Source: Tamlana sp. (GTDB lineage: Bacteria; Bacteroidota; Bacteroidia; Flavobacteriales; Flavobacteriaceae). From it: 64,000 nt of DNA. The number at the start of each line of letters is the position of its first letter. Positions within the stretch are counted from its first letter, which is position 1. The notes under the pieces were generated by a model. It was not told the DNA's origin, ran no database searches, and saw only the letters and a list, made by a program, of their open reading frames with translations. Both the position numbers and the translations under genes were made by a program. Location: positions 9,644-73,643 of the forward strand of contig JBMTVT010000001.1 of the NCBI GenBank assembly GCA_049451635.1, read 5' to 3'. Shown piece after piece: positions 45,601 through 50,225 of the stretch.

Positions 45601-46002
45601 TTGCGACAAATTAACGGTAAACTGAGACCCATCATTTCTAAAACAAGACACTTGCCCATCAGGAATTATGGGGTTGTGAAACTGAGTAATTTGTATATTT
45701 TTTGGGTTATCGGGGTATTCATAATGTTTTCTGTCCCAAGAAATAACCTCATTTTCAAAAGTAGATTTTACAGCTTTACCAAAATAAATAGCTTTCTTAA
45801 TAACTTCTTTATTTATTGCCGGGAGCACACCCATTTGTCCAGTACAAACCGAACAAATATTTTGATTTGGGATATCAACTTCTTCATTGGGGCAAGAACA
45901 AAATAATTTGGTCTTTGTGTTTAACCGAACATGCGTTTCCAGCCCGATTACCAATTCTAACTCGTGTGCTTTTAATGCAGCATCTAATTCTTTCAATTCC
46001 AT
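42664..46002 (-). CDS. gatB-aspS: Fusion protein: Asp-tRNA(Asn)/Glu-tRNA(Gln) amidotransferase subunit B (aa 1-~478), K/E-rich linker, then bacterial-type aspartyl-tRNA synthetase (aa ~518-1112)
   Basis: Uninterrupted 1112-aa ORF. GatB motifs: VIGLETHVRLNTKTKLFCSC, DRKHYEYPDNPKNIQITQ, VHIEEDAAKL, VDFNKAGVPLIEIVT. AspRS motifs: FLEIETPIL, FRDEDSRGDRQPEFTQLDLE, GAD-type insertion, GGIAWGVDRLMMIL. Confidence 0.88.
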   Translation of the reverse strand: MELKELDAALKAHELELVIGLETHVRLNTKTKLFCSCPNEEVDIPNQNICSVCTGQMGVLPAINKEVIKKAIYFGKAVKSTFENEVISWDRKHYEYPDNPKNIQITQFHNPIIPDGQVSCFRNDGSQFTVNLSQVHIEEDAAKLIHEKQVSLVDFNKAGVPLIEIVTTPCIRHIEDASTYAQYIQRIVQNLKISEANLEKGEFKSDVSVSLRKKHSYNLNPRTEIKNLNSFKFMVDALKEEVEKQLNYYLEHKEFRPDQTTVLWDADLKQTKTMRKKEYEADYRFISEPDLPFVCIKDVVESIDVDISALPFAVESIIIKGGVLPQDAKFFTADALRSKTFMQINDVLKDPSFVTKTLVNNISTEDYGDIHRIEHLIEIFQLFKEEKITSVLVQNAITNYLKDRHFDYNKYFEAHTISEDKIYDAISKVITENEAIANDIKAGNQGKAGILVGKVIAIIGKGASGKVIREGILASLAGDVERQKSEIVSDEKPKIKSQKPEAKEEEKLPEIPLIIKDKYRTHLITDISDDSISQVVTFAGWVASVRDHGELIFIDLRDSSTEKFQVRLSRESFPNLDELVKLKPESVITVSGTILQRKEDDYNPSLRTGKIELEANELDILNLSRTLPFEIKRATKTNENTRFQYKFLDHRNDDVRRTIVNRHKVIKLLRDILDEEDFLEIETPILSAGTDEGAREFIVPSRKQAGAFYTLPQAPQQFKQMLMVSGYEKYFQIARCFRDEDSRGDRQPEFTQLDLEMAYASMQQIMDLNTKMFNEVVTKIYGNKWILHPFEVITYQDAMDKYGCDRPDLRFGLQLQDITDIVKETTFQVFSKPIEEGGIVKCIKVSAKEQGKKRLSKGQIEKLTAIAQQHGLGGLAYIIVNENNLQSPIIKFLGEDIAAGIIKTTNAQVGDIVFFSAADYATANKALDAVRQELGSMLRLINPKELRPAWVIDFPMFEKTDDGRWTFTHNPFSMPAVYDIEKHMNGKDAEIGTIIAQQYDLILNGYEIGGGSVRAHKPEILEATYRNMGYNKEEMMKSVGTMYKAFHYGAPPHGGIAWGVDRLMMILEKKASIREVMAFPKTGTSDDLLFGAPSMLSDKKVEEMNVKVMRNK

Positions 46003-47402
46003 TATATCACATCTTTTAAGAAGTTAGCAAATTTTAAAACGAGTTCGTCATTGTTTTTTGCAGCAGTAATCTGCAAACCTGTTTCGGTGCCTTGCGGAAT
46101 GGTTAATGTTGGTAATTGCCCAAGGCTAAAACCAACCGTATAGGCGTCACTTAAATACATGGCGTGTGGGTCTTTTAAACTATCTCCAATTTTTGGAGGT
46201 GAGCTAGGTGTAACAGGCGATAAAATAACATCTACCTCTTTGAAGTCTTGCTCAAAGTTTTGGGAAATAGCATCACGTAGCGCTAATCCTTTTAAATAAA
46301 TTTCGTCTGAAAACCCTTGTGATAATACTTGGTTGCCTCCAACAATACGTCGTTTGGTTTCTTCTGAGAAATTTTCAGAACGGGTAATGGCGTAAGATTC
46401 TTTAAGGTTTTTATCATCAATGCGATTACCGTAATTAGAACCATCTAAACGGGATAGGTTAGAAGCTGTTTCTGCCATGGCTAAGGTATAATACGTAGAA
46501 ACTAAAGTGTTTGAATCAAAAAAATCCAAAGACTTAACTTTAATGCCTTTAGTTTTTATTTTTTCAATGGATGCTAAAAAGTCAGCTTTAATTTTAGGGT
46601 CAATCGCGTCACTTTCAATGAAGTTTTTAAAGTAGCCAACGGTTTTTATGCCTTCTAAATTTTTAATGGTATCAACATCAATTTCTACGGAAGCGTAAGT
46701 GGTTTGATCTTTTACATCTTTACCGCTCATTATGTTCAGAACTATACGGATATCCTCAATAGATTTTGCAATAGGGCCAACACAATCTGTAGATGATGCA
46801 TAAGCCATTAAACCAAAGCGTGAAATACGTCCATAAGTGGGTTTTAAACCATACACATGATTATAACCAGCTGGTTGACGTACCGAACCACCAGTATCGC
46901 CTCCAATTGAAAAAACCGTATAATCTAAAGCTACATTAACCGCAGAGCCACCACTGGAACCACCACCTACCAAATTTGGGTTTATGGCATTTTTTACGGC
47001 ACCAAAAATGGTGTTTTCGCTAGATGACCCATGCCCAAAACTATCGCAGTTTTCTTTTACAATAGGAATAGCACCAGCATCGAGTAGTTTTTGAATAGCG
47101 GTAGCTGTATAAGCCGATTTGTAGTATTTTAATAGGTTGGAACTCGCCGTTGTGCAAGTGCCTTGAAGCATGTACACGTCTTTAATGCCAAAAGGAATGC
47201 CTTCCAATAAGCCAATGGTTTCGCCATTAGCTATTTTAGCATCCACTTTAGCAGCTAGGTCAAAAGCTAAAGAATCTAATAAACTGTTAACCGTGTTGTG
47301 CGTGTTTTGTTTTAGTAAGTTGAGTTTTTCCTGTATCAGGTCCTTACAAGATATATCCTTGTTCACCAATTGCTGATGAATTTTATGTATTTGAGATTCC
47401 AT
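46002..47402 (-). CDS. gatA: Amidotransferase subunit A (amidase signature family)
   Basis: 466 aa, ...GIPFGIKDV..., GGSSGGSA, GGDTGGSVRQPA. Its stop overlaps the fusion ORF start (TAATG). Confidence 0.88.
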   Translation of the reverse strand: MESQIHKIHQQLVNKDISCKDLIQEKLNLLKQNTHNTVNSLLDSLAFDLAAKVDAKIANGETIGLLEGIPFGIKDVYMLQGTCTTASSNLLKYYKSAYTATAIQKLLDAGAIPIVKENCDSFGHGSSSENTIFGAVKNAINPNLVGGGSSGGSAVNVALDYTVFSIGGDTGGSVRQPAGYNHVYGLKPTYGRISRFGLMAYASSTDCVGPIAKSIEDIRIVLNIMSGKDVKDQTTYASVEIDVDTIKNLEGIKTVGYFKNFIESDAIDPKIKADFLASIEKIKTKGIKVKSLDFFDSNTLVSTYYTLAMAETASNLSRLDGSNYGNRIDDKNLKESYAITRSENFSEETKRRIVGGNQVLSQGFSDEIYLKGLALRDAISQNFEQDFKEVDVILSPVTPSSPPKIGDSLKDPHAMYLSDAYTVGFSLGQLPTLTIPQGTETGLQITAAKNNDELVLKFANFLKDVI

Positions 47403-47404
47403 AA

Positions 47405-47674
47405 TTATTCTTCTATAATTTTAGAAACCACCAAATATCCGTTTTTCTCTTTTGGGAAATTCTCAATAATGATTTGTTTTTCCAGATCAGAACTTTCAAT
47501 CACTAAATCATCTCTCAAATTTTCTAAAGACACACAATTATTATGTTTGGTATTAAAGGAGTTGTTGTTTGTTGGTTGTGCATTTTTAATTACATCAAAC
47601 AATTTGTTAACCGCTTCACTTGGTTGTGCTCCTTTAATACTCGACAAAATATCGACCGTCATAATTTTACTCAT
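47405..47674 (-). CDS. gatC: GatC-like amidotransferase subunit C (divergent N-terminal half)
   Basis: 89 aa. The C-terminal half …LENLRDDLVIESS…ENFPKEKNGYLVVSKIIEE matches the GatC LReD…aP…g.f.VPkvie pattern. Sits 2 nt upstream of gatA. Confidence 0.6.
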   Translation of the reverse strand: MSKIMTVDILSSIKGAQPSEAVNKLFDVIKNAQPTNNNSFNTKHNNCVSLENLRDDLVIESSDLEKQIIIENFPKEKNGYLVVSKIIEE

Positions 47675-47691
47675 GTCTAAAATTTTAAATT

Positions 47692-47720
47692 AAAAAAGCC
47701 TTCCGGTTTCGGAAGGCTTC
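47692..47720 (-). terminator. Intrinsic terminator 17 nt UPSTREAM of gatC on the same strand (attenuator terminator)
   Basis: Minus strand reads aagccttccg-aaac-cggaaggctt followed by tttt: a 10-bp stem with a U-tract of 6 including the last 2 stem positions. Confidence 0.75.
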
Positions 47721-47749
47721 AAATATTTTCAAACAATAACCTTCCTGTC

Positions 47750-47797
47750 CTAAAAATTAGGATTATTGAAATTATTATTGTTATTGTTGTTTACCAT
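47750..47797 (-). CDS. Asn-rich leader peptide MVNNNNNNNFNNPNF (15 codons, 10 Asn)
   Basis: Hand translation of the minus strand: ATG GTA AAC AAC AAT AAC AAT AAT AAT TTC AAT AAT CCT AAT TTT TAG. The stop lies 4 nt before the candidate antiterminator segment GGAAGGUU. Confidence 0.6.
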   Translation of the reverse strand: MVNNNNNNNFNNPNF

Positions 47798-47813
47798 TGT
47801 ATTATTTGAAGGT

Positions 47814-47821
47814 CAAATATA
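47814..47821 (-). promoter_or_regulatory. Candidate -7 box TAtaTTTG for the leader/gat operon transcript
   Basis: Minus strand reads tatatttg, 16 nt upstream of the leader ATG. Confidence 0.35.
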
Positions 47822-48188
47822 TACAGAATAAATATATTAAGCACTATTTTTTCTAATATCGTAATATGTATTATCAAATTAATAAAAAACCTAAAGTTAA
47901 TTTGAAAGTTCAAAAATCTTTTTGTTGAATCACTTGTTTTAATGTATTATCAAAGATCAAAATTGTTATTTGAAACTTAAGATTTTCAATAGAAATAAAA
48001 TTTTAAAACAACAAAAAATCCATTTTAAGAAACTTTTGTTTTTTTTAAATTTTTCAAAAGGTAAAAAGTATCTTAAATCAATTTTAAGACACTTTTTAGG
48101 CGATTTAAGACACTTTTAAATAATTAACAAATGTTGATAATTTTATTTGTGAGCCTATAAAAAGCTTTTTAATAGGGTTATATTTTCG

Positions 48189-48196
48189 TATATTTG
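48189..48196 (+). promoter_or_regulatory. Candidate -7 box TAtaTTTG upstream of gyrB
   Basis: Consensus match, about 80 nt before the gyrB ATG. Confidence 0.3.
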
Positions 48197-48206
48197 TTTG
48201 TATTGA

Positions 48207-50225
<2,019 letters not shown>

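Follow-up and report, generated by a model that had tools for sequence, protein, structure and literature searches.

A putative asparagine-sensing leader-peptide attenuator before the gatC-gatA-gatB::aspS operon of Tamlana sp.

The leader region of the gatC operon

The 64-kb stretch of DNA from Tamlana sp. (Flavobacteriaceae; assembly GCA_049451635.1, contig JBMTVT010000001.1, positions 9,644 to 73,643), hereafter the window, contains the operon gatC-gatA-gatB::aspS. Between the operon and its putative promoter lie a short open reading frame (ORF) rich in asparagine (Asn) codons and a terminator-like hairpin. This leader-terminator element, of about 120 nucleotides (nt), is examined here as a candidate attenuator. 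The features are summarized in Table 1, in which the positions of the attenuator and the operon refer to the window and its minus strand. In a preliminary description of this DNA, mutually exclusive terminator and antiterminator structures had been proposed between the Asn leader and gatC, and the sequence elements on which the proposal was built are present base for base, and in place, on the minus strand. The four RNA regions that can pair with one another are numbered 1 to 4 in the order of transcription.

Table 1. Features of the gatC leader region and operon, in the order of transcription
Feature	Position	Strand	Support
Upstream promoter part: A6 tract (47852-47847) and TAGTG (47846-47842)	47842..47852	-	Conserved across the 76 unique loci with a leader
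Bacteroidetes sigma-A -7 box TATATTTG (consensus TAnnTTTG)	47814..47821	-	Conserved in 76 unique loci
Leader ORF, 15 codons and TAG, encoding MVNNNNNNNFNNPNF	47750..47797	-	Conserved in homologues
Region 1: AACAAUAAU (47782-47774) and UUUC (47771-47768); Asn codons and Phe codon	47768..47782	-	Minimum free energy fold
Inner hairpin UCCUAA/UUAGGA (47762-47757 / 47753-47748); Pro and stop codons, atop the 1:2 helix	47748..47762	-	Minimum free energy fold
Region 2: GGAAGGUUAUUGUU, with core GGAAGGUU (47745-47738)	47732..47745	-	Near-invariant in 78 unique copies
Region 3: GAAGCCUUCCG, terminator 5' arm; AGCCUUCC (47718-47711) shared with the antiterminator	47710..47720	-	CCUUCC invariant in 78 unique copies
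Region 4: CGGAAGGCUUU (47705-47695), terminator 3' arm, with U6 (47697-47692)	47692..47705	-	Covariation with region 3
gatC-like gene, 89 residues, first regulated gene	47405..47674	-	Homologues named GatC by NCBI and JGI
gatA, amidase subunit	46002..47402	-	Pfam Amidase, 2e-107
gatB in an in-frame fusion with a full bacterial-type aspS, 1112 residues	42664..46002	-	Domain and model matches

For comparison, 160 gatC loci of Flavobacteriaceae were collected, 80 from reference genomes and 80 from metagenomes, and the element is present in 100 of them. From these 100 loci, unique sets of 79 leaders, 78 copies of regions 2, 3 and 4, and 76 promoters were drawn, and the counts given below refer to these sets. 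An alignment of 41 sequences served for the paired-cell counts of the terminator and the 1:2 helix and for the covariation score of the terminator, and the RNAalifold consensus was calculated from 81 sequences. No second copy of the element was detected across the window, and its run of seven AAY codons is the longest one there.

The promoter elements are well conserved. The T, A and TTTG positions of the -7 box are invariant in the 76 unique loci having TAnnTTTG, and one locus is without the box. In most loci, 16-19 nt separate the box from the leader ATG. In the upstream part, the A-tract positions are A in 96-99% of the loci, and the GTG positions are conserved at 66-83%. In Flavobacterium psychrophilum, the box is located at -12 to -5 of the mapped start sites (PMC9723704). 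On account of this position, we infer that transcription starts at about 47809, giving a 5' untranslated region of about 12 nt, and that TAGTG lies at about -37 to -33, the place expected for the -33 element. A predicted hairpin at 47825-47798 was not retained as a part of the leader, since it runs into the promoter, upstream of the presumed start, and is therefore probably outside the RNA.

A search of the stretch from the terminator to gatC found no TAnnTTTG box at any locus; this stretch is 12-25 nt long in most of the unique gap sequences. On this evidence, gatC can only be reached by transcription through the terminator. In the window, the gatC ATG (47674) follows the last U of the U6 tract (47692) after exactly 17 nt, as given in the preliminary description. 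Insertions of 40-214 nt are present between the attenuator and gatC at several loci (L018, L044, L046, L074, L103-L105, L111, L118, L120 and L156). Several of them hold small hairpins, such as CATGTCTTGAA...TTCGAGAT, and none contains a TAnnTTTG box.

Asn accounts for 10 of the 15 leader codons: a run at 47791-47771, a pair at 47767-47762 and a single codon at 47758-47756. Of the 100 element-bearing loci, 98 have an intact ORF, and these ORFs specify 68 distinct peptides, 14-18 residues long, in which Asn occurs 6-14 times. There is free variation at residues 2-3, and TAG serves as the stop codon in 97 loci. An in-frame ATG is located 36-63 nt before the stop in 78 of the 79 unique leaders (the corresponding numbers for the other two frames are 4 and 1). 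Within the Asn run, AAU and AAC are interchanged, with 540 AAU and 126 AAC codons in the unique leaders. As judged from the sequences, the leader has the pattern of a translated ORF whose sole conserved message is the Asn codons.

The stop codon TAG (47752-47750) is followed by GACA, and GGAAGGUU begins 4 nt after the stop, in agreement with the preliminary description; the distance is 3-5 nt in all 98 homologues. The two AAU codons at 47767-47762, located between UUC and CCU, are almost invariant, and either of them differs in a handful of copies. These codons are unpaired in every model structure and may simply be extra regulatory Asn codons.

Pairing among the four RNA regions

RNA folding had been suggested as a check in the preliminary description and was performed here. 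The 156-nt region folds at -37 kcal/mol, compared with -20.0 ± 3.2 kcal/mol for shuffled sequences (z = -5.3, 0 of 200 as low), and the minimum free energy (MFE) structure consists of the 1:2 helix and the terminator. The segments from region 2 to region 3 of the 79 unique homologues give a mean fold z of -4.0 against shuffles.

The hairpin of regions 3 and 4 is composed of 11 pairs (6 G-C), an AAAC loop (47709-47706) and the U6 tract. The GC-rich stem, the 4-nt loop and the U tract of the preliminary description are all found, and its 10-bp stem becomes one of 11 bp when an outer G-U pair is counted. A terminator scan picks out this hairpin, with four terminator-like sites in 1.1 kb versus 0.4 expected. 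In the alignment, 95% of the cells are paired, and the covariation score was reached by 2 of 500 shuffles. The pair between the base before CCUUCC of region 3 (-1) and the base after GGAAGG of region 4 (+1) is G-C in 67 of the unique copies, A-U in 7 and G-U in 4, with no mismatch (0 of 20000 shuffles). The loop-closing pair also alternates between G-C (19 copies) and A-U (34 copies), with p = 5e-5. The loop is free to vary in sequence and length, and a U tract follows the stem in nearly all copies. The covariation therefore indicates that the hairpin is under selection as a structure, and by its form the hairpin with U6 is an intrinsic (Rho-independent) terminator. Since gyrB is divergent from the gatC operon, on the plus strand, the hairpin ends no upstream gene's transcript.

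Region 2 is near-invariant though it is non-coding, while the flanking linker and spacer vary. Its core GGAAGGUU, after which comes a 17-nt A/U-rich spacer, can pair with region 1 as well as with region 3. The pairing of GGAAGGUU with AGCCUUCC comprises 8 bp, seven Watson-Crick pairs and one U-G pair, which agrees with the antiterminator proposed in the preliminary description, and a helix of 7-8 bp is possible in 78 of 78 unique copies. In the GGAAGG core of region 4, only A to G changes are found (12 copies), and none of the changes breaks a pair. In region 2, A to G is found in five copies and U to C in one copy, where the U-G pair is upgraded to C-G. All of these substitutions keep the pairing with CCUUCC. 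The RNAalifold consensus consists of the inner hairpin and the 2:3 helix, each pair being kept in at least 97% of the sequences.

The 1:2 helix, an anti-antiterminator, is the dominant MFE structure and was absent from the preliminary description. AACAAUAAU pairs with GUUAUUGUU, and UUUC of region 1 pairs with GAAG of region 2. In the alignment, 97.9% of the cells of this helix are paired, and the changes are one-sided, with no compensatory doubles. A possible covariation between A/G in region 2 (UUAUUG or UUGUUG) and AAC/AAU in region 1 was rejected, as it is just the alternation of U-A and U-G without compensation. The small hairpin that had been noticed over the last leader codons and the stop, with a conceivable role in pausing, is present as UCCUAA/UUAGGA on top of the 1:2 helix. 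Here a compensatory change is observed, CCUA/UAGG to UCUA/UAGA in three sequences, together with one U-G intermediate. This change converts Pro to Ser; therefore, the RNA, not the residue, explains the conservation of CCU.

The energies of the 1:2, 2:3 and 3:4 helices are predicted to be -11.6, -9.8 and -17.5 kcal/mol in the window, and the means of the 79 unique leaders are -12.4 ± 1.6, -11.7 ± 1.5 and -15.5 ± 1.5 kcal/mol, respectively. When the RNA ends at region 3, the antiterminator is predicted to be adopted in 76 of the 79 leaders, at -14.0 kcal/mol in the window.

Proposed mechanism and other explanations

Sequence data of this kind lead us to the reading that the element is most likely a ribosome-mediated leader-peptide attenuator, which senses charged transfer RNA (tRNA) for Asn and controls gatC-gatA-gatB::aspS; we put its probability at roughly 0.75. 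The preliminary description had compared the geometry with trp/his-type attenuation, and the predictions of that model that can be tested on sequences hold for the ORF, the terminator, the stop spacing and the absence of a promoter box after the terminator, and the antiterminator pairing, kept in all unique copies, is consistent with it.

The proposed mechanism is as follows. Transcription would begin about 12 nt before the 15-codon ORF with its 10 Asn codons. In the naked RNA, the Asn codons and UUC of region 1 would pair with region 2. With a good supply of Asn-tRNA, the ribosome would run to the UAG, 4 nt before region 2, and mask GGAAGG. A ribosome usually reaches about 13 nt downstream, and the stop codon is located 3-5 nt before region 2; therefore, a ribosome with UAG in the A site should cover GGAAGG. 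With region 2 masked, region 3 would pair with region 4, and transcription would terminate at the U tract, giving an expected transcript of about 118-120 nt. Under a shortage of Asn-tRNA, translation would stall in the Asn run, with the ribosome occupying region 1 and leaving region 2 free. The free region 2 would zip onto the emerging region 3 before region 4 exists, and the terminator would be delayed. The polymerase would then enter gatC, gatA and gatB::aspS, restoring Asn-tRNA(Asn). The regulatory logic is tight, because the product of the operon, Asn-tRNA(Asn), is the sensed molecule itself. What the sequences show is the elements, their conservation, the covariation of the terminator, the geometry and the lack of a promoter box downstream; how far the ribosome reaches, how the helices compete in time and how the switch answers to Asn-tRNA are features that we infer.

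Several observations weigh against this reading. The first concerns the energies. With region 4 present, the terminator beats the antiterminator at equilibrium for any ribosome position, and the switch must therefore be kinetic. The preliminary description had named a non-competitive antiterminator as an argument against attenuation; this is what is found at equilibrium, and before region 4 is made the antiterminator prevails in nearly all leaders, as described above. In addition, for naked RNA that stops at region 3, the prediction slightly favours 2:3 over 1:2, so the untranslated state may terminate less than is the case for trp. Coupling of transcription and translation in this organism is an assumption.

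The second concerns the antiterminator. Its outermost G-C pair is lost, through the first G of region 2, in 12 of the 78 unique copies; the 2:3 hairpin of these 12 copies still has an average energy of -10.3 kcal/mol, because GUUGUUU pairs with the A-rich spacer. Covariation across homologous leaders, proposed earlier as a check, favours the terminator through its compensatory changes, and for the antiterminator it yields one-sided changes and not one double compensatory change in the unique copies. As the CCUUCC strand is invariant, no double compensatory change is possible, and an invariant strand common to two helices is as the attenuation model predicts. Extension of the antiterminator by one or two pairs was also considered. 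The first of these pairs is only slightly enriched, being formed in 25 of 78 copies versus 19 expected (p = 0.026), the second shows no enrichment, and neither was counted. According to these results, the antiterminator is conserved and consistent with the data, rather than proven.

The third concerns the distribution. Sixty of the 160 related gatC loci are without the element and have a plain promoter-like block instead.

The hairpin and U tract make a strong intrinsic terminator by themselves. Accordingly, the hairpin might be a leaky terminator of fixed strength, or it might close a separate small gene of about 120 nt encoding a micropeptide or a small RNA, with constant readthrough into gatC and no sensing of Asn. 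Attenuator RNAs and leader peptides are able to act in trans, for example rnTrpL and peTrpL in Sinorhizobium, which lends some weight to the small gene. We regard this explanation as unlikely, since a fixed terminator leaves three features unexplained: the near-invariance of region 2, a non-coding stretch that resembles region 4 and can pair with regions 1 and 3; the spacing of 3-5 nt from the stop to region 2; and the front half of the peptide, which is conserved in its Asn codons only.

The end of the peptide is almost invariant as FNNP in the 68 distinct peptides, and a Pro close to the stop codon is a known context of arrest or slow termination. A nascent-peptide arrest similar to that of TnaC may thus be imagined, in which the C-terminal F-N-N-P-x-x-stop stalls the ribosome near the stop, perhaps by free Asn, and sets the fold. 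The codons in question are, however, explained by the RNA: UUC has GAA in region 2 as its pairing partner, and CCUA forms the 5' arm of the inner hairpin. Where CCU is changed to UCU, the change of UAGG to UAGA keeps the hairpin and not the residue. Moreover, a ribosome arrested at the stop would cover region 2 and thereby promote termination, the opposite of what sensing a shortage requires. Arrest by the peptide therefore seems very improbable to us.

A search of Rfam gave a single match, to RF01859 (Phe_leader), with 40.9 bits (E of about 1e-5) against a gathering threshold of 55, and the T-box covariance model had no match to positions 47300-48400 at E up to 10. A translation-independent switch, in which a protein or a tRNA binds the AAY repeats or region 2 in the style of TRAP, PyrR or the T-box, could in principle use the tandem AAY triplets as a repeat-binding site and has a parallel in Clostridium acetobutylicum, where amidation that depends on tRNA is controlled by a T-box (PMC4206432), but there is hardly a chance that it operates here, as Rfam holds no match up to E 10 besides the sub-threshold Phe_leader, an element of about 120 nt is judged too small for a T-box, and the conserved in-frame ATG and stop together with the AAU/AAC interchange point to decoding.

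Known systems are helpful in placing the leader-peptide attenuator. The leader repeats, the small hairpins and a terminator of the AAGCCUCC...GGAGGCUUUUUU type align with Phe_leader over the whole model, whereas the leader here has a single Phe codon and belongs to a different phylum. Because of the sub-threshold score, the one Phe codon and the other phylum, the element is not a member of Phe_leader, and the likeness is architectural only. The E. coli pheST leader (pheM) illustrates that attenuation can control a tRNA-charging enzyme.

The E. coli trp leader (trpL) shares several features with the element. In both, the regulatory codons of region 1 are located in a short ORF that stops just before region 2, the 1:2, 2:3 and 3:4 helices are modelled as mutually exclusive, and the terminator exceeds the antiterminator in stability, so that the choice would be kinetic. 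The E. coli trp helices have energies of about -11, -12 and -20 kcal/mol, with the same ordering. Unlike trp, the leader here contains Asn codons in place of Trp codons, its target is an operon for aminoacyl-tRNA transamidation and not an amino-acid pathway, and its naked RNA is predicted to favour 2:3 before region 4 is made. The host also differs, being a member of Bacteroidetes with a -33/-7 promoter and, to our knowledge, no use of Shine-Dalgarno sequences.

For C. acetobutylicum, T-box control of GatCAB tRNA-dependent amidation is described (Saad et al. 2012, as cited in PMC4206432). The regulatory logic would be the same in both organisms, the tRNA-dependent formation of Asn-tRNA(Asn) responding to how much of the tRNA(Asn) is charged; the T-box RNA binds uncharged tRNA directly, whereas the sensor here would be the ribosome translating Asn codons. 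In F. psychrophilum, the mapping of transcripts has led to the inference of leader attenuators rich in His and in Ile codons, for his and ilv (PMC9723704). They belong to the same bacterial family, have the same promoter type and carry short ORFs in structured 5' regions before biosynthetic operons, and they differ from the leader here in the amino acids and the operons. A term search on gatC and asparagine in the main text and supplement of PMC9723704 gave no Asn or gatC leader, and our literature search for an Asn leader or a gatCAB attenuator returned nothing relevant.

The operon, its distribution and implications

The gatC-like protein matches TIGR00135 weakly (E = 4e-4) and has no match in Pfam. 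GatA scores 417 bits against TIGR00132, under the curated cut-off of 481 bits. The fused protein contains the GatB_N, GatB_Yqey, OB fold, tRNA-synt_2 and GAD domains, with model scores of 708 bits for aspS (NF001750) and 392 bits for gatB (NF004012). The same gatB::aspS fusion, of 1111-1112 residues, is present in the loci L161 (8673-12011) and L163 (8673-12008). NCBIfam has a model for an AspRS-GatC fusion, and the best matches here are the separate aspS and gatB models. Our literature search turned up no paper on a GatB-AspRS fusion. The gap between gatC and gatA is 2 nt (47402-47405), and the gatA stop and the gatB::aspS start share base 46002. This spacing suggests translational coupling along the operon.

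Upstream of the leader, the AT-rich gyrB-gatC intergenic region contains three direct copies of TTTAAGAMACTTTT (at 48024, 48083 and 48104) and one inverted copy (48062-48077) within 48024-48117, which are candidate protein-binding sites. On the plus strand, a terminator-like hairpin with T7 is located at 48193-48226, about 50 nt before the likely gyrB start codon (48276) and within the putative gyrB 5' leader.

Presence of the leader varies within genera, and leaderless species are also found in Mariniflexile and Polaribacter. Among the cultivable strains with the leader are Tamlana fucoidanivorans CW2-9, Mariniflexile fucanivorans DSM 18792 and Litoribaculum gwangyangense JCM 18325. Divergent Asn leaders were searched for among 58 unique leaderless upstream regions, and none was found. 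The leaderless loci have a conserved block, AAAACTTTCGTAATTTnGCnnGCTTAAAAGTTTGAC, about 25-60 nt upstream of gatC (L002, L003, L019-L021, L043, L076 and others), which by its sequence looks like a -33/-7 promoter. The inverted repeat AAACTTT/AAAGTTT within this block could be an operator, as far as the sequence tells.

Two possible correlates of the leader were discarded. The gatB::aspS fusion is also present in leaderless Algibacter pacificus. Among the genome loci, divergent gyrB is located upstream in 12 of 40 with the leader and in 5 of 40 without it, and no link was seen. The sampled gatC loci of Flavobacterium are all without the leader, and F. psychrophilum has asnB. This asnB hints that the leader may accompany reliance on the tRNA route.

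The Asn leader is most likely a so far unreported example of classic trp-style attenuation and is not a new mechanism. It is, on balance, probably the first described Asn-specific attenuator and the first ribosome-based sensor controlling tRNA-dependent transamidation, by GatCAB fused to AspRS. Asparagine would join the amino acids known to be sensed via leader-peptide attenuation, and attenuation would be extended to the indirect pathway that depends on tRNA, in a phylum with hardly any documented cases of such control. The compact switch of about 120 nt, with its very clear architecture, is suited to work on transcription-translation coupling in Bacteroidetes. The attenuator also provides a testable claim on the purpose of GatCAB in marine Flavobacteriaceae, namely the formation of Asn on tRNA(Asn), with AspRS fused to GatB. 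If the attenuation reading is true, the Asn-only leader would be a built-in label that GatCAB of these Flavobacteriaceae serves the synthesis of Asn-tRNA and not of Gln-tRNA, and the patchy presence of the leader could track the genomes without other Asn routes.

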